The notes under the pieces were generated by a model. That model made no database searches. It saw only the letters and a program-made list of their open reading frames with translations, and was not told the origin of the DNA. Both the position numbers and the translations under genes were made by a program. Below, piece by piece: positions 16,486 through 23,744 of a DNA stretch of 55,180 bases (the first letter of the stretch is position 1; each line of letters starts with the position of its first letter). Source of the DNA: an uncultured archaeon (lineage in GTDB: Archaea > Asgardarchaeota > Lokiarchaeia > Sigyniarchaeales > SOKP01); assembly GCA_964493385.1 (NCBI GenBank), contig CAZBNW010000002.1, forward strand, positions 19,793-74,972, written 5' to 3'.

Positions 16486-18900
16486 TTAAAATGATTTCTG
16501 TTTACTTTTGAATTTTGTATATAATGCTTTATCTAATAAACGTCCTATTTTTACAGCAATTTTGGTCCCAATTTCATACCTTTCTCCATCAAGTAGATTT
16601 CTTTTTTCCTCAGGAGTGGGTATTTTACCGAGTCTTTTCATTAAGATTTTTTCAATAATATCATTTACGACATTTTTAGTTTTTTCATAATCAGGTAATT
16701 TAATATCTGAAGTGAAGTTTTTAATTTTTTCAATGGCGAAATTAAAAAATTGGCTGATTAACTCTATAGGATCCCCTTTTATTTCACTGTGAAGTTTGAT
16801 ATTATCTATTGCTATTTTTGTATCTTTTTCTTGCCAATATAACTGATTTGGGTTAATCCCAGGACTATTAATTCGCATAAGTGAACTGGTGATTCTACGT
16901 TCAATCCAATTTAAAGTGCTTAATTCTTGTTCTTCTCGTATTTTTTTTGCTTTCTCTTCTTTTTCTTTTTCTTTCGATTCTATTATTTGTTCAACCTCTA
17001 ACTTACGTGTTTCTTCAGATTTTTCAAATCTTTTAATAATGTCATAACCAATAGAATATGAAATGGGAGAAATTAAATCCACTTTTAACTTTAACGGAGC
17101 AATATCCTCATATATTGGACTTTCTTTGTTTTTTAATTCTGAAATAGCATTTTTTAAAGATATCTCCATCAATCGACCCAAAATGAACCCATTAACTAGA
17201 AATGGTTGATTATCAGCATTAAATACAATAACTAATTCTTCTTGTCTTTTATTTAATCGTTGAATAATCAATTCTTCAAGTTTGATTTTAACCCATTCCT
17301 CTGAGTCAGTCGTTCCGTAGATTTTTTTTAAAGCTAAGAGAAAAAGTGATCTATCATTAGAAACCTTAAAATACAACTCTATTATTCGACTAAGTTGCCT
17401 TAAAATCTTGGATAATATATAAAAGAAAATATCTTTTGCTAATTGATTAATAATGTCTTCGAATTCCAAAATAAATAATATATGAGAGTAATTAATTAAC
17501 TTTAACTCATCTAAAAAGACTTTATCGATAACTTGCTTTTTTCCGATGTACTCTCTTAACTTATTAATGCTCGTTCCCGTTTTTTCTTCTAAAACTCTTA
17601 GTAAATCTGGATATTTATTAAGATCTTTATTTATTATGTTTATTAAGTCAAATTCGGAGATTTTATCGGATTGATCTACGATTTCCCTGATATATTCAAA
17701 ATTCAATTTGGAAATCGCCTTTTTTGCTAAATAGATTAAATTTTGTTTATCATCATTTAAAGATACAATATCTAGTTTTTTTATATTATATCTAACCATG
17801 TTTCTTTTTACTTTATTAGATAATTCTTCATCTATATTTAAGAAATATAAAACATTGTAAACACCGTATTTATTCAAAACATAAATTATATCATCAAAAC
17901 TACATTCATTTAAGCATTCCAAGAAATAGATAAAATCATTCGGATTCTCTTTTAATTTTTTAATTAATACGAATTTTAAAAAGCTTAATACTTTTTTTTC
18001 AAATTGATCATAATTTATTTTCTCTTTAAGACCATCTTCAATTTTTTTTATTAAATCTTTCTTCAAATTATTTGCTGCTATAAAAGTATTCAATCCAGGT
18101 ATTGAAATAGGAAACCGGTCAAAATTGAAATCTAAAACTTTCCTTTTTATCATTCTAACTGGCATCGCTTCTATTTGTAATTCTTTATAAGATTTAAACT
18201 CAAAATCCTTTCGGATTTTTTTTATTAATCGATTTAATGTCGCTAATTCTATGAATCTATCTTCCTTTTCTTCTAATTCTAATTTTTTCTCCAATTCAAC
18301 AGATATATCTTTAAAAGCTGCGCTTTCTTCTAAAATTTCTTTTTTGACTTCATTGGTCAGTCCTATTAAATCACCTATTAAATCGTAAAAATAAAAACGT
18401 GGATAATTTAATATAATTTCTCGTAATTCTTGCTCAATTTGAATTTCTATATCTTTTATCATCTTCTCTTTTTGAATTTCTTGAAGTTCAGGTTTTCTTT
18501 CTTCAATTAACAACGAAATAAATTTATTTTCTAAATCAATCAATTTATTGAGAAGATTAACTTCTAAAAATAATGAGTCTTTTAATAGGGAACTAACCTC
18601 TTCAATAATAATCTTTTTTTCTGTAAGTTCTAAATTCTTAGTAGAATCGTAAGTAAATTTATCTAAATCAAGAGTCTTTTGAACTCTGATTCCTAAACTA
18701 TGATATATATGAATAGTTGCTGTAGCAATTAATAAATCATTAAAGCTAGATTTCTGGCTAATAAGTTCAAAGATTTTATTCTTATCAGCTTCCCTTTTAA
18801 AATGGGAAATTATTAAATCAACTGTTTGAAAAAATCTAAACGTACTTTCAACTGCAGTTGTTTTTCTCTTAACTCCGCTAATCATAATTCCTTCACCCAT
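16486..18900 (-). CDS. Large hypothetical alpha-helical/coiled-coil protein (804 aa)
   Basis: Long uninterrupted ORF, E/K/L/I-rich, no recognisable motif; overlaps the end of the upstream gene. Confidence 0.85.
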   Translation of the reverse strand: MGEGIMISGVKRKTTAVESTFRFFQTVDLIISHFKREADKNKIFELISQKSSFNDLLIATATIHIYHSLGIRVQKTLDLDKFTYDSTKNLELTEKKIIIEEVSSLLKDSLFLEVNLLNKLIDLENKFISLLIEERKPELQEIQKEKMIKDIEIQIEQELREIILNYPRFYFYDLIGDLIGLTNEVKKEILEESAAFKDISVELEKKLELEEKEDRFIELATLNRLIKKIRKDFEFKSYKELQIEAMPVRMIKRKVLDFNFDRFPISIPGLNTFIAANNLKKDLIKKIEDGLKEKINYDQFEKKVLSFLKFVLIKKLKENPNDFIYFLECLNECSFDDIIYVLNKYGVYNVLYFLNIDEELSNKVKRNMVRYNIKKLDIVSLNDDKQNLIYLAKKAISKLNFEYIREIVDQSDKISEFDLINIINKDLNKYPDLLRVLEEKTGTSINKLREYIGKKQVIDKVFLDELKLINYSHILFILEFEDIINQLAKDIFFYILSKILRQLSRIIELYFKVSNDRSLFLLALKKIYGTTDSEEWVKIKLEELIIQRLNKRQEELVIVFNADNQPFLVNGFILGRLMEISLKNAISELKNKESPIYEDIAPLKLKVDLISPISYSIGYDIIKRFEKSEETRKLEVEQIIESKEKEKEEKAKKIREEQELSTLNWIERRITSSLMRINSPGINPNQLYWQEKDTKIAIDNIKLHSEIKGDPIELISQFFNFAIEKIKNFTSDIKLPDYEKTKNVVNDIIEKILMKRLGKIPTPEEKRNLLDGERYEIGTKIAVKIGRLLDKALYTKFKSKQKSF

Positions 18901-21188
18901 TCTCTATAGACTTCTTTAAAATTGTCTAATATTTCAAATCTAGCGTTATTGTGCCAAAATTTGAAATCTATTACATGAAAAAGATCCCCTTTAAATAACT
19001 CTCTTTCCTCATTTGTTAAAATATGTTTTAAAGTTACCGTTAAAGGTCTTGGTATTAATTTCGAAAAATATTTTAATTCTATATTTTTAATATAATTATA
19101 AAATGTCTCGTCCTCATCTAGATTAAAATAATTAAGGGGAATTATTTTCTCTATTTGAGGATTTAGATTATTCAACTCATTTTTAATATTATTTTTAACA
19201 TACTTCGGAAAATCAATATTAATATCAATACTAAATTCATAATTCTTATAAAATTCAAGTAATAAACTTTTTTCTTCAGGATTAGGTACTTTTGCTATAT
19301 ATATATCTAAAAAAGTCAGAAAATTTTCAATTTGTTGCTCATTTGATTCTCTCTCTTCAAAATATCCAATAAAATCATTGTATATCTCTGTTAAAGTCCA
19401 TATCTTTTGTTCTTCTGGTTTAAGAAATTTCTTAGAATAATCTTTTATCCAATCTAGAATATAAAATTTCCATTCAAGGTTTATACCTCCTATTCTCTTT
19501 TCTAAAAATCTATGAAATCTATTCGAAAAAGTTACAGGATCACTGATTTCTTTATCAGGTTCCTCCTTAATATAGCGATTAATTGTAGAATGCCTTAAAA
19601 CATAGCTTAATAAATAACGTAACTCTCTTGAAAATTTCTTAAATTTTTCAAGATGTTCTCTTATTCTTCCAGTATTAGATTCCATCTGGATTTCTGCAAA
19701 AGAGATTAAATCATCTATTTTCAAATCTATTACGTTAAAATAAATATCAATATTCTTATCAACTAATAAAATAAACTCTTTTATAAGTTCTGCTTCATTA
19801 TATTTGAGATCCTTTTTTAATAGAATCGAGTGTGTTTTAATTTGATTGAAAAGAAATGCTTTAAATTTTCCAATTAATCTCTGCCCTAAAATTTTCGCCG
19901 GTTTTTGCTCCCTACTAAATTTTTCATCTAGTTTTTCAATTAATTTTATAGTCAGAGTTTTTAATCGACGATGAGAAAGATACTTTGGAAGTGATATTCT
20001 AATTAAATTTAGACTTTTTTTAATAATTTCAGAAAAATAATTGAAAACCGAACTCAATTCTATTATTCTCAAACTTTTTTCTTGCTTTATTGATTGCTTG
20101 ATAAATTTTTTAGTTATTTTACATATATCTTCAAAATTTTCACTTTCTAATTTTCCTTTATTTAAAATAAAATGCTCAAATTTGTTTAATAATTCATCCA
20201 AATTTCCTATTTCCCCTGTACTGAGAAAATTTCTAGAATATTCTAAAAATTTATTTAGAAATCTTTGTAATACAATTAATAACTCATAAATATAGGAGAT
20301 TAGCCATTCTGCTGTATGAGGTTCACCATATTCTTTTATTTTTTTGCCAATATAATTAATTATAAAAACAATTATTTCATCTTGAGATTCATCTAAAGTT
20401 CCTGTATTTGCTAAATTAATGAGATTAGTTCCTAAGTTTAAAGTCTTGTCAACAATGAAATTAGCACTTGGTTCAGATATTGAATATTTAAGATGCTCAA
20501 TCGCTTGTTGCCCATCAAATGGAGTTTTAAGCTTTTGAAATTTAGAATTTAAAAAATTTATTTCCATAGGTTTTTTATACCATAAAATTTCTACGTTAGA
20601 GATAATTCTCGCATATGTATTCAACATTTCCTTTTCTGTTGGGAGAGTTCTGCTTAAACCAATTAATTTCTTGTTCCATTTATCTTCAATTAGTTCTCCA
20701 TAAAGTTTTTTACTAAATCTAGAGGCGAATTTATTATACAACTGTTGCTTATTTTCTTTCTTTAACTCTGGGTGATTAGAAAACTCTTCTACCTCAAAAA
20801 ATAATTTACTTATATTATTCAATGATTCTCTAGATTTATGTACATCTAAAACTCCTGTTTCAGGTTTTAAAGCAAGTAATAGGCTTTCACAATCTTTAAA
20901 TTTGCCTGGTATGAAAATCATTGATTTTGGGTAAATATTAATTCGAGCACTTTTTTCATCAAAGTTGTATAAATCAAACTCTATACTAAACACTTCTGCT
21001 CCTGTATAATCCCGTAAAAATGCATTGTACATTGTTAAAAATTTAATAACTTCTTGTGAAAGCTCATTAACTTTTTTTCTCGTTAACCTTCCAGGGCCAA
21101 TTACATCTCCAGCAATAACATCATTTGGCGAGGAATATCCAAATATCAATGAAAATTGGTAACTTATAGATTCGCGAGTTGTTATCAT
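18882..21188 (-). CDS. Large hypothetical protein (768 aa)
   Basis: Long uninterrupted ORF with no recognisable motif; coupled to 16486-18900. Confidence 0.85.
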   Translation of the reverse strand: MITTRESISYQFSLIFGYSSPNDVIAGDVIGPGRLTRKKVNELSQEVIKFLTMYNAFLRDYTGAEVFSIEFDLYNFDEKSARINIYPKSMIFIPGKFKDCESLLLALKPETGVLDVHKSRESLNNISKLFFEVEEFSNHPELKKENKQQLYNKFASRFSKKLYGELIEDKWNKKLIGLSRTLPTEKEMLNTYARIISNVEILWYKKPMEINFLNSKFQKLKTPFDGQQAIEHLKYSISEPSANFIVDKTLNLGTNLINLANTGTLDESQDEIIVFIINYIGKKIKEYGEPHTAEWLISYIYELLIVLQRFLNKFLEYSRNFLSTGEIGNLDELLNKFEHFILNKGKLESENFEDICKITKKFIKQSIKQEKSLRIIELSSVFNYFSEIIKKSLNLIRISLPKYLSHRRLKTLTIKLIEKLDEKFSREQKPAKILGQRLIGKFKAFLFNQIKTHSILLKKDLKYNEAELIKEFILLVDKNIDIYFNVIDLKIDDLISFAEIQMESNTGRIREHLEKFKKFSRELRYLLSYVLRHSTINRYIKEEPDKEISDPVTFSNRFHRFLEKRIGGINLEWKFYILDWIKDYSKKFLKPEEQKIWTLTEIYNDFIGYFEERESNEQQIENFLTFLDIYIAKVPNPEEKSLLLEFYKNYEFSIDINIDFPKYVKNNIKNELNNLNPQIEKIIPLNYFNLDEDETFYNYIKNIELKYFSKLIPRPLTVTLKHILTNEERELFKGDLFHVIDFKFWHNNARFEILDNFKEVYREWVKEL

Positions 21189-21536
21189 AATTTAATTCTA
21201 TTAACAGATGGTAATTCTTAAATCAATCAATCATAAGTATTAAATATTTAGGCAAAAACCTTAAAAAAAAATCAAAGGTTGTTTTAAATATTTTTAAGTT
21301 TATAAAGTATTAAAATTTACTTTTGAATAGTAAATAAAGTACATCTATAAAAATATTATAGTAGAAATAAGAGAGTGAGATAAGGAGTAGTATAATTAAA
21401 ATATATAATGAATTTAAAAGTCTTGATTTATTAATTGTACCCTATAAAGATAATTTAAGTTTTAAAAATAAAAATATAATAAGAAAAAAACTATATTAAT
21501 AATAATAAAAACTTAAAGCATTCAAGGTGTTGGCTT

Positions 21537-21941
21537 ATACAATTTGGGTCTGATTTAGGAATTAATCAAGAGGATATTGAAAAAATTAGTCCTCAAATTA
21601 CTTTTATAACATCTAACGCAGATATAGAAGCTATAGCACTTGTAAGTTTTGAAGGGTATCAAATAGCTTTTTCAGCTTTACCACAATATCATGTTGATGG
21701 AGATCAATTTTGCGGGCTTGCGAGTGCGCTATTAATGACAGGAAGATCAACAATTCAAACTTTATTTCAGGAAGATTTAAGTGAAATCATAGTTCGAGCA
21801 CAAGATGGTTATATCGTAATTACTAATGCGGGGCGATTAGTGATTGTCTGTGCGGGAACAATAATTGATACACTTATGAAGACAGTAAAAGTTATGCGCA
21901 TTGCAGCAAAGAATCTTTACAAAATTTTCGAAGATCGCTAA
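21537..21941 (+). CDS. Roadblock/LC7 (MglB-like) domain protein
   Basis: The frame is open upstream of ATG 21735: DIEAIALVSFEGYQIAFS...LASALLMTGRSTIQTL...LSEIIVRAQDGYIVITNAG. Putative ATA start at 21537 after AAGGTG. Confidence 0.85.
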   Translation: MQFGSDLGINQEDIEKISPQITFITSNADIEAIALVSFEGYQIAFSALPQYHVDGDQFCGLASALLMTGRSTIQTLFQEDLSEIIVRAQDGYIVITNAGRLVIVCAGTIIDTLMKTVKVMRIAAKNLYKIFEDR

Positions 21942-22133
21942 ATAATATTCTCTTTTTAATTAACATTTAAAAAAATAATCTCCAATTACTTAATTTTCAT
22001 TCAAGAGTTAAAAATTTTAGATATTGAAAGTGTTCAAATTTTTCAATCAATTTTTAAAAAATTTCCATAAGTTTTTATTTATAGATGTATAAATAAGATT
22101 CAAAAATACTTGAATGATTTTTTTTTTACATTT

Positions 22134-22184
22134 ATGCCAATTATAAGAAGTAGTACTTGGCAATGGCCTTGGCGTTGGCAATAG
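22134..22184 (+). CDS. Putative Trp-rich leader peptide (MPIIRSSTWQWPWRWQ) upstream of trpB2
   Basis: ATG 22134 to TAG 22184; four TGG codons among the last eight sense codons; 156 nt before the trpB2 start. Confidence 0.75.
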   Translation: MPIIRSSTWQWPWRWQ

Positions 22185-22255
22185 AGCCAACTGCAATGGT
22201 TTAAAATTATTTTTTCATTTTAATATTTTTTCTCATAATATTAAAATCTCTTTTT
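22172..22255 (+). promoter_or_regulatory. Putative attenuator hairpins and T-tracts in the trpB2 leader
   Basis: Hairpin GTTGGC-AATAGA-GCCAAC (22174-22191) spans the leader stop. An 11-bp perfect inverted repeat ATTTTAATATT/AATATTAAAAT (22217-22247) is followed by a T-run. Confidence 0.5.
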
Positions 22256-22340
22256 AAATGCGCATTAATTGTATTGATTTCCAATATATAAATGATACAC
22301 ATCTTAAGATGTGAAAAAATGAAAATAAGCGGTAATTAAA

Positions 22341-23744
22341 ATGGTAGATTATTTTAAGGGAAGAATTTTTTTACAACCAAATGAGATTCCAAAAGAATGG
22401 GTAAACATCTTACCAGATTTACCCTCTCCTATGACGCCCTTAATCAATCCGATGGATGGAAAACCAGCTCCCCCAGAAATGGCATTTGCTATATTTCCTA
22501 AAGAATGTGTAATGCAGGAAGTTTCTCAAGAGCCTAATATACCCATTCCTAATGAATTAAGGGAAATATTTGCGAGCATTTATCGCCCTAGTCCTCTCCA
22601 TCGTGCTTTGAGTTTAGAAAAAGAATTAGGCATAGAAGGTGATGATATTAAAATTTTTTATAAAAATGAATCTTTATCTCCTACTGGTTCGCACAAACCT
22701 AATACTGCTATTGCCCAAGCATATTATGCGAAGAAGGAAGGAACAGAAGAACTGGTCACCGAAACAGGTGCGGGACAATGGGGTTCAGGCTTAGCATATG
22801 GATGCAATCTATTTAGACTTAAATGCACTGTATACATGGTAAGAGCAAGCTTTTTCCAAAAACCTGGTAGAAAAATTTTAATGAGATCTTTTAATGCTGA
22901 AGTACATGCAAGTCCTTCGAAGCTGACTGAATCTGGAAAAATTTTCTTAGAAAAAGATCCAGAACATCCAGGTAGTTTAGGAATCTCGATATCTGAGGCA
23001 CTAGAGCATAGTATGAGAAGTGATAAAATAAAATATTCTCTTGGAAGTGTAGTCAATTTTGTTCTTTTACATCAAACCATTATAGGACAAGAGACTAAAA
23101 TTCAACTGGCGAAAATGGGTATTGAAAAACCAGATATAGTAATTGGGTGCATGGGAGGCGGTTCAAATTTTTCTGGTTTGATGATTCCATTTGTAAGAGA
23201 TAAACTCAATGGAACAAGTCCAGATATAGAGATAATTGGTGTGGAACCTCGAGCATGTCCAAGTGTATGTAAAGGGGAGTACAGATGGGATTTTGGGGAC
23301 TCCTCGATGAAAGGCCCTATAGTAAAGATGCACACTTTAGGACACACTTTCATCCCAAGCCCAATTCATGCAGGAGGATTAAGATACCATGGAATTGCTC
23401 CTATTGTTTCAATTCTATACAACAATCGAATTATCAAAGCTATTATGCATCATCAAACTGAAGTTATTAAGGCAGGTATTCAATTTGCTAACACTGAAGG
23501 AATACTTCCTGCCCCAGAAACTGCTCATGCTGTAAAAGAAACTATTGATCAAGCATTAAAAGCTAAAGAAAACAATGAGAAAAAAGTAATTTTGTTTAAT
23601 TTTAGTGGTCATGGTTTCTTTGATTTATTAGCTTATAAAAAATATATGACCGGAGAATTAAAGGAGTATGAGTTACCATCAGAAGAAATTCAAAAAGCTT
23701 TAGCGTCAGAAGAAATGCCTGTAATTGATGAAACTCAATTTTAG
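22341..23744 (+). CDS. trpB2: Tryptophan synthase beta chain, TrpB2 type
   Basis: YRPSPLHRA, SPTGSHKPNTA (PLP Lys), TETGAGQWG, GSLGISISEA, GGGSNF, HAGGLRYHG and PAPETAHA. Confidence 0.96.
   Translation: MVDYFKGRIFLQPNEIPKEWVNILPDLPSPMTPLINPMDGKPAPPEMAFAIFPKECVMQEVSQEPNIPIPNELREIFASIYRPSPLHRALSLEKELGIEGDDIKIFYKNESLSPTGSHKPNTAIAQAYYAKKEGTEELVTETGAGQWGSGLAYGCNLFRLKCTVYMVRASFFQKPGRKILMRSFNAEVHASPSKLTESGKIFLEKDPEHPGSLGISISEALEHSMRSDKIKYSLGSVVNFVLLHQTIIGQETKIQLAKMGIEKPDIVIGCMGGGSNFSGLMIPFVRDKLNGTSPDIEIIGVEPRACPSVCKGEYRWDFGDSSMKGPIVKMHTLGHTFIPSPIHAGGLRYHGIAPIVSILYNNRIIKAIMHHQTEVIKAGIQFANTEGILPAPETAHAVKETIDQALKAKENNEKKVILFNFSGHGFFDLLAYKKYMTGELKEYELPSEEIQKALASEEMPVIDETQF

Follow-up and report, generated by a model that had tools for sequence, protein, structure and literature searches.

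Ribosome-mediated attenuation is a textbook outcome of bacterial transcription-translation coupling, and the described system closest to the locus treated here is the enterobacterial trpL attenuator (Rfam family Trp_leader, RF00513). In other bacterial systems, Rho-dependent attenuation of the Escherichia coli tna operon is governed by leader translation, and in ermC-type translational attenuation a stalled leader peptide frees a ribosome-binding site. Control of trp genes by tryptophan (Trp) is also exerted through proteins, namely TRAP of Bacillus, which binds (G/U)AG repeats (as a rule 9-11 of them), and TrpY, the repressor of the Methanothermobacter trp genes, which acts on DNA at the promoter. 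Here we describe the leader of a trpB2 gene in an uncultured archaeon (Asgardarchaeota; Lokiarchaeia; Sigyniarchaeales; SOKP01), analyzed within a window of 55,180 nucleotides (assembly GCA_964493385.1, contig CAZBNW010000002.1, positions 19,793-74,972), in which a small upstream open reading frame (uORF) rich in Trp codons likely serves as a tryptophan-sensing leader peptide. All positions below are those of the window.

Amino acid-rich small open reading frames (ORFs) outside the enterobacterial design have been described in mycobacteria, where polycysteine leaderless short ORFs are reported to act as Cys-responsive attenuators (bioRxiv 10.1101/834739). A 2026 review of transcription termination (PMC13675443) cites uORF-linked premature termination in mycobacteria and describes archaeal termination as relying on U-tracts and enhanced by aCPSF1/FttA; the word stem "attenuat" is absent from it. 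That uORFs act in archaea is a generic statement in the introduction of the uORF4u paper (PMC10219788). Neither an archaeal Trp leader nor an archaeal ribosome-mediated attenuator was found in full-text literature searches, whose coverage did not extend to subscription journals.

A Tryptophan-Rich Leader ORF Precedes trpB2

The trpB2 gene (22341-23744, forward strand) encodes a TrpB-like pyridoxal phosphate enzyme of 467 aa, with matches to NF009057 (632 bits) and TIGR01415 (585 bits) that both exceed the cut-offs. Upstream on the same strand, with 156 nt between it and the trpB2 ATG at 22341, lies a uORF of 16 codons (22134-22184) encoding MPIIRSSTWQWPWRWQ, whose ATG, Trp cluster and stop are kept in relatives. 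Its four TGG codons (22158, 22164, 22170, and 22176) all fall within the last eight sense codons, spaced W-x-W-x-W-x-W with a strict period of 6 nt, mostly as UGGC in the RNA, and the stop codon TAG follows at 22182-22184. TTGGC occurs at the first, third and fourth Trp codons (W1, W3, and W4) and ATGGC at the second (W2), while GCCAA is present at 22136-22140 and 22186-22190. The GC content is 0.45 at 22140-22199, as against 0.08-0.22 in the neighboring 60-nt intergenic windows. An initial annotation of the same DNA had reported this four-TGG ORF with its translation and distance from trpB2, the GC-rich island, the three TTGGC copies over Trp codons with GCCAA at 22136 and 22186, and, further on, T-tracts and an 11-bp inverted repeat; all of these are present in the sequence as described.

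The Trp-codon cluster is not a product of chance, in agreement with the initial annotation, which had judged four TGG codons beside a trp gene improbable in DNA of this composition. In the 2.79-Mb genome (GC 0.297, 92% complete), four Trp within an 8-residue window occur in 3 of the 36,945 ATG-started ORFs of 6-45 aa; 6,227 of these small ORFs avoid long ORFs, 2,066 of which have a long ORF at most 400 nt downstream, and among these 2,066 intergenic small ORFs the uORF is the sole four-Trp case (binomial p = 4e-7, uncorrected). Six other small ORFs of the genome, taken from the top candidates for enrichment in a single amino acid (I-, V-, or W-rich), were also inspected, and none stands before a biosynthetic gene; the genes behind them encode an ABC ATPase, a molybdopterin oxidoreductase, a DUF1028/TPR protein, SMP-30, FrhB/FdhB and an aldehyde:ferredoxin oxidoreductase.

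To assess conservation, 61 genomes were searched at the protein level, and full-length trpB2 sequences of 81-94% identity were recovered from congeneric genomes. At each of the 27 congeneric loci, this genome among them, trpB2 is preceded by a small ORF about 160-235 nt upstream that ends in W-Q-W-P-W-x-W-x-stop or a near variant. The TGG triplets are invariant in the alignment, the intervening codons differ (R, C, Q, H, S, W), and synonymous changes occur among the non-Trp codons (CAA/CAG; CCT/CCC/CCA). Within the uORF, 3 of 4 gap intervals are divisible by three vs. 7 of 35 in the spacer; the lone frame-breaking gap alters only the tail past the last shared Trp, and the N-terminal length of the uORF differs among relatives with the frame retained.

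The survey was widened to 53 distinct leaders from 12 genera, all bearing a structured RNA element next to the start codon (HC/H3, described below). The initial annotation had staked its reading on the retention of the Trp codons by relatives, and they are kept in 27/27 congeneric leaders and as clusters of 3-6 in 50 of the 53, although kin are not independent and these counts exaggerate the number of independent events. Clusters of four prevail (31/53), followed by three (9/53), five (8/53), and six (2/53); two leaders have two Trp only (L154 and L155) and one has no uORF (L146). An in-frame ATG is present in 49/53 leaders, and GTG (L158) and TTG (L160) in one each, so that 51/53 combine an in-frame start with a nearby stop; in 47/53, 0-3 codons separate the last Trp from the stop. 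From the uORF stop to HC the distance is 53-87 nt in the 51 leaders whose uORF was correctly picked.

Outside the family, among the trpB2 loci listed, 16 of 19 Asgard loci (one of them a Borrarchaeum record) have a small ORF with at least two Trp in its last eight codons. The same Trp-ended small ORF was seen at 2 of 76 non-Asgard loci and at 0 of 9 from named other archaea, again among the loci listed, where an ORF of the classical W-W-W type precedes trpB2 at 9 of the 76 non-Asgard loci, all of them bacterial. The bacterial trpB2 loci L072, L087, L071, L060, L062, L040, and L106 have upstream W-W-W or W-W-W-W ORFs in which the Trp run is not C-terminal, as in the classical bacterial leader type.

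In the 27-sequence alignment the sole strongly conserved block upstream of the uORF is A-A-G-T5-A-T (22069-22079, forward strand), a candidate promoter block that, from the archaeal consensus, we take to be the B recognition element and TATA box of the leader promoter. With the uORF ATG about 56 nt downstream of this block, the predicted transcription start would be near 22100-22105. A scan for promoters and terminators of bacterial type, which is not applicable to archaea, returned only the palindrome of hairpin H3, on the minus strand. ARAGORN found five tRNAs in the whole genome.

A Tandem Hairpin at the Start Codon Is Confined to trp Genes

The most conserved part of the leader, as judged by invariant columns, is an element that the initial annotation did not contain. 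HC/H3 (22252-22339, forward strand) was identified as a 97-bit match to a covariance model, R1, of 88 positions built from 28 leaders. It consists of a nested hairpin, HC (22263-22267 with 22290-22294, and 22272-22276 with 22282-22286), and a second hairpin, H3 (22298-22303 with 22308-22313), 3' of which an A-rich stretch leads to a Shine-Dalgarno-like (SD-like) GGTAA at 22331-22335, 6 nt before the trpB2 ATG. When 21500-22900 was scanned against Rfam with cmscan at E-values up to 10, the four matches returned were weak, and all of them lay outside 22134-22340.

R1 matches once in this genome. Across the order it was found in 92 of 151 genomes, 91 of them among the 131 of the family, where it covers 12 of the 13 sampled genera, and it was found in none of 19 genomes from three sister families. 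Of the 28 genomes in the genus that gave a TrpB-type match, 27 carry R1, the remaining genome being 58% complete and its match a fragment; R1 is absent from all 8 genomes that gave no TrpB-type match.

On the 53 distinct matches, in an alignment that was fitted to R1 and so leans towards its structure, the HC/H3 helices are 86% paired as against 21-52% in slid controls, and 13 of 16 pairs show two-sided changes (0/500 shuffles as high). At the HC pair 15-47, for example, AU (31), GC (10), GU (4), UA (3), and UG (2) all occur. The stem covariation that the initial annotation had proposed to look for was thus found, as RNA-type compensatory changes in H2 (a spacer hairpin described below), HC, and H3; the tolerance of G-U together with these compensatory flips indicates a plus-strand RNA, and hence a spacer transcribed together with the gene. 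Judged by comparison across genomes, HC/H3 is a new, well-delimited predicted RNA element that accompanies trp genes across 12 genera.

Second copies of R1 are present in several genomes. Four of these (L134-L137) head trpD-trpC-trpF-trpB operons, as identified with Pfam, whose uORFs are again Trp-rich, e.g., MANEKIIPFRWHWSWRA, MATEKIILFRWQWLWRA, and MATVKSSAWRWQWPWR, each followed by a stop, and whose H1 arms (see below) are GC-rich and quite different from those of the trpB2 leaders. L138-L140 are further loci of two-copy genomes and are trpB2 genes with their own leaders. One genome (G137) has a trpB2 (L138) as well as a trpD operon (L137), each with its own uORF and HC/H3, and another (G075, contig C50) has two trpB2 paralogues 15 kb apart (L139 and L140), each likewise with a uORF and HC/H3.

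A second small ORF, encoding MIHILRCEKMKISGN (22292-22339, forward strand), begins within the 3' arm of HC and ends 1 nt short of the trpB2 ATG. Its frame is poorly kept, with a stop ending at most 2 nt from the trpB2 ATG in 9 of 26 scoreable relatives and ACG in place of ATG in four, and it is therefore probably not functional.

Hairpins Over the Tryptophan Codons and the U-Rich Spacer

The anatomy of the remaining leader was drawn from an alignment of 29 leaders (A2). In hairpin H0 (22135-22162, forward strand), TGCCAA (22135-22140) forms a stem with the W1-containing TTGGCA (22157-22162); most relatives instead pair uORF codons 2-4 with W1-Gln-W2. In hairpin H1 (22174-22191, forward strand), the W4-containing GTTGGC forms a stem with GCCAAC around a loop that contains the stop codon, and an outer extension joins 22165-22171 to 22194-22201. 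The H0 helix is 80% paired with few compensatory changes, and the H1 helix is 84% paired, its arms altering between clades and yet remaining complementary. Across relatives, H1 is formed by the last Trp codon or codons and the sequence after the stop, which itself lies in the loop or in the 3' arm. When stems are counted without regard to register, 42 of 50 leaders have the last Trp codon in a stem of 4 bp or more, vs. 21.6 expected from dinucleotide shuffles. The initial annotation had proposed that TTGGC and GCCAA form mutually exclusive stems; the pairings themselves correspond to the conserved H0 and H1, but the two hairpins can form together and are not alternatives.

Between H1 and HC/H3 lies a U-rich spacer (22210-22255, forward strand), a candidate site of premature termination, with T6 at 22210-22215, T6 at 22226-22231, and T5 at 22251-22255. 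An AU-rich 11-bp inverted repeat, H2 (22217-22227 with 22237-22247), holds the second T6 in its loop and is followed by CTCTTTTT; 10 of its 13 pairs show two-sided changes. Both H2 with its T5 and the T6 recur in most of the genus.

Taken together, the helix set on A2 has 81% of cells paired, vs. 34-46% when partners are slid, and 19 pairs with two-sided changes, vs. 10.6 in shuffles (0/500 as high), in a test that favors this set as it was drawn from the same sequences. For the 3' arm of H1, other conserved partners were looked for, HC/H3 among them, and none was found. Two longer-range pairings were tried and rejected: pairing of the T6 tract with the A-run downstream of H3 (predicted p about 0.2) had no support over shuffle and slide controls, and for a pairing of the invariant CCAAT in HC with CA(A/T)TGG, the motif after H1, the changes in CA(A/T)TGG are uncompensated. 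Collectively, comparison across relatives shows the uORF, its Trp codons, H0/H1 and HC/H3 to be conserved, trp gene-specific and, by predicted pairing, RNA-structured.

A Proposed Tryptophan-Responsive Attenuator

From this arrangement we infer ribosome stalling, premature termination as the output, and a role for HC/H3. Transcription would begin about 30 nt upstream of the uORF, giving a leader of about 240 nt, and a ribosome would translate the uORF, whose UGG codons lie inside H0 and H1. When charged tRNA-Trp is scarce, the ribosome would stall on the UGG codons, hold H1 open and shield the nascent RNA directly behind RNA polymerase, which would then pass the U-rich spacer (T6, H2, and T5) and complete HC/H3 and trpB2. 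With ample Trp, the ribosome would reach the UAG and depart, H1 would close, and the naked U-rich RNA would be terminated either intrinsically or with aCPSF1/FttA reading the U-tract. We estimate that stalling on W4 would bring the ribosome to within a few nucleotides of a polymerase at the first T6. That the uORF senses Trp through its translation is very likely from the comparative evidence, and that it acts as a tryptophan-sensing leader peptide controlling trpB2 in cis appears likely. Termination is the output that we favor, given the U-rich tracts, H2 with its U-run, the known reliance of archaea on U-tracts and the geometry of the stall, but as the main output it is put forward tentatively.

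Several observations weigh against this model. Masking the Trp codons in the 29 leaders removes only H0 and H1 and leaves H2, HC, and H3 unaltered, so that no conserved antiterminator is predicted, and RNAalifold run on the whole leader recovers HC alone (11 pairs, -4.5 kcal/mol). The folding energy of the H1 window does not differ significantly from dinucleotide shuffles (median z -0.79). In the spacer, H2 is deleted in one relative (L015), and a run of T5 or longer is absent from 9 of the 53 leaders, among them the trpD-operon leaders L134-L136. Coding DNA contains T-runs at the frequency expected from its composition (T6 0.99 per kb, A6 2.9 per kb), and T5-T6 alone is thus probably a weak terminator here. 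HC/H3 always adjoins the start codon, a position that fits translational control better than termination. The trpB2 leader of L146 (G105:C8) carries HC/H3 at 64 bits without a Trp-rich uORF, and the relatedness of the sampled leaders, noted above, applies to every count. The masking result, the coding T-runs, the leaders without T5 or longer, L015, and the position of HC/H3 are the reasons for our reserve about termination. The attenuation proposed in the initial annotation accordingly stands as a Trp leader peptide and not as a conserved terminator/antiterminator switch, with T5 or longer lacking in those nine leaders.

In L146 the upstream Roadblock gene stops about 140 nt before HC/H3, and the locus looks like a natural deletion variant.

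A broader formulation, which we regard as possible though rather doubtful, is that of a lineage-wide Asgard amino acid attenuator that dispenses with the bacterial hairpin switch and takes HC/H3 as a second input at the start codon. Under it, the position of the ribosome on the terminal W-x-W codons would set termination in the U-rich spacer, aCPSF1/FttA-assisted or intrinsic, and the input through HC/H3 would be a protein or a ligand.

Competing Explanations

One alternative, which is compatible with the favored explanation, supposes two independent inputs: the uORF would read charged tRNA-Trp, and HC/H3 would separately control initiation at the start codon by binding a Trp-responsive protein or small ligand. 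The standing of HC/H3 as the most conserved part of the leader, its confinement to trp genes, its RNA covariation (pair 15-47), its retention without a uORF in L146 and its lack of an Rfam family match are all consistent with this. Against it, HC is conserved in its stems but variable in its internal and apical loops, a pattern not expected of a ligand pocket; no protein that might bind it emerged, and no TRAP homologue was found in the genome; and the uORF precedes 52 of the 53 HC/H3 elements. We consider two separate inputs somewhat unlikely.

The same stalling sensor could also act on translation or mRNA stability and not on transcription. In the translational variant, HC/H3 and its flanks would gate the trpB2 ribosome-binding site in an ermC-like manner, and in the stability variant the stalled ribosome would guard the mRNA against 5'-to-3' decay. 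For a translational output speak the end of HC/H3 at most about 10 nt from the start codon, in trpB2 and trpD leaders alike, the mean unpaired values of 0.38 for the SD and 0.36 for the AUG in ensemble folds, and a candidate helix between the 5' flank of HC and the SD (A2 columns 198-207 with 285-294), which is 69% paired vs. 42-57% when slid. This SD helix is, however, AU-rich and marginal, 26/500 and 20/500 shuffles reaching the observed values; masking the Trp codons leaves the pairing of HC, H3, and the SD unaltered in the model; and the 3' arm of H1 has no conserved pairing to HC/H3, the changes in CA(A/T)TGG being uncompensated. An output of this kind in place of termination is, on balance, unlikely.

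Two further readings, which between them invoke a TnaC-like, a TRAP-like or a DNA-operator mechanism, fit poorly. In a TnaC-like arrest peptide, W-Q-W-P-W would sense free tryptophan in the exit tunnel and stall the ribosome at the stop codon. The inter-Trp Gln and Pro are conserved with some synonymous codon change, and the Trp residues adjoin the stop codon, as such a peptide would have it; but the final one to two residues are diverse (Q, R, L, H, I, A, S, Y, F, C, W), the last codon has no fixed Pro, Gln and Pro are largely accounted for by the GGC/GCC pairing of H0 and H1, the number of Trp ranges from 2 to 6, and the controlled genes (trpB2 and trpD-trpC-trpF-trpB) are biosynthetic and not catabolic, which makes an arrest peptide improbable. 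That the UGG repeats are untranslated, serving as a periodic RNA site or DNA operator for a TRAP- or TrpY-like protein, would suit their strict 6-nt period, mostly as UGGC, and the fact that codon and motif conservation are indistinguishable at the Trp positions (Trp having a single codon), but is highly improbable in view of the in-frame start and nearby stop in 51/53 leaders, the frame-preserving indels and N-terminal length changes with the frame held, the empty search for TRAP (PF02081) in the 92%-complete genome with a positive Bacillus subtilis control, and the G-U-tolerant covariation, which points to a plus-strand RNA and not a DNA palindrome.

The trp Genes of the Genome and the Neighboring Genes

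TrpA, indole-3-glycerol phosphate synthase and the anthranilate synthase fold were not found in the 92%-complete genome, where Glycos_transf_3 gave a weak match of 66 bits, and trpB2 is the only trp gene found in it. This would fit indole salvage in a Trp auxotroph, and with trpB2 as the sole trp gene found, a signal of Trp starvation makes physiological sense.

In three genomes from two other genera, a conserved ORF of 83-90 aa lies between HC/H3 and trpD (L167:41-313; L168:2294-2545, minus strand; L169:18-275). It has no Pfam family (best E 0.02) and may be an uncharacterized first gene of the trp operon.

Upstream of the leader, the gene at 21483-21941 (forward strand) contains a Roadblock/LC7 domain (32 bits). 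In its frame of 152 codons, neither ATG nor GTG or TTG occurs ahead of codon 85, and the gene may have an unusual start or be truncated; the same Roadblock C-terminal motif is found before trpB2 in two other genera (L139 and L146). Farther upstream, 16486-21188 (minus strand) holds two large ORFs of 804 and 768 aa; a scan covering the 768-aa protein of the pair found no Pfam family at E 0.001.

Significance and Comparison With Known Systems

On present comparisons, the element is very probably new, an archaeal variant of leader-peptide control combined with a trp-specific RNA motif. A conserved Asgard Trp leader, if true, would mean that ribosomes trail RNA polymerase closely enough to regulate it. 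The locus would then be a natural test bed for the influence of translation on archaeal termination (U-tracts, aCPSF1/FttA, and Spt4/5), and the leader could serve as a sequence-level marker for Trp limitation in uncultured Asgard populations.

With TrpY and TRAP the leader shares Trp-specific control of trp genes, and TrpY is the known archaeal precedent; it differs from both in that what is conserved in it is an ORF that looks translated, together with RNA hairpins, and from TRAP sites in having four UGG at a 6-nt period and not (G/U)AG repeats. Like the polycysteine ORFs of mycobacteria, it would use a small ORF rich in one amino acid to sense that amino acid's own pathway outside the enterobacterial design, whereas those ORFs are bacterial, leaderless and tied to another downstream logic. 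The resemblance to Rho-type systems lies in a leader ribosome whose position would set the access of a termination factor, the archaeal counterpart of which would be aCPSF1/FttA; that factor is a nuclease, however, and Rho a helicase, and the response would need to have the reverse polarity of that seen with tnaC. With ermC the leader would have in common the stalling of a leader peptide within a hairpin, as proposed here, and it has structured RNA beside the main ribosome-binding site, but its signal would be tRNA-Trp charging where that of ermC is an antibiotic, and its ORF lies about 150 nt from the ribosome-binding site without a conserved chain of alternative helices.

In comparison with trpL, a short, Trp-clustered leader ORF again precedes trp biosynthesis genes of the same strand, with the Trp codons and stop inside a hairpin, as in the 1:2 hairpin of trpL, and U-rich sequence and a hairpin downstream. 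The differences are the archaeal host and the lack of an Rfam match here, the absence of a predicted conserved antiterminator/terminator alternative, and a candidate terminator that is AU-rich and dispensable in some relatives. In the Asgard leader, moreover, the Trp codons alternate with other codons immediately before the stop, and a conserved tandem hairpin, HC/H3, is added at the start codon of the gene itself.

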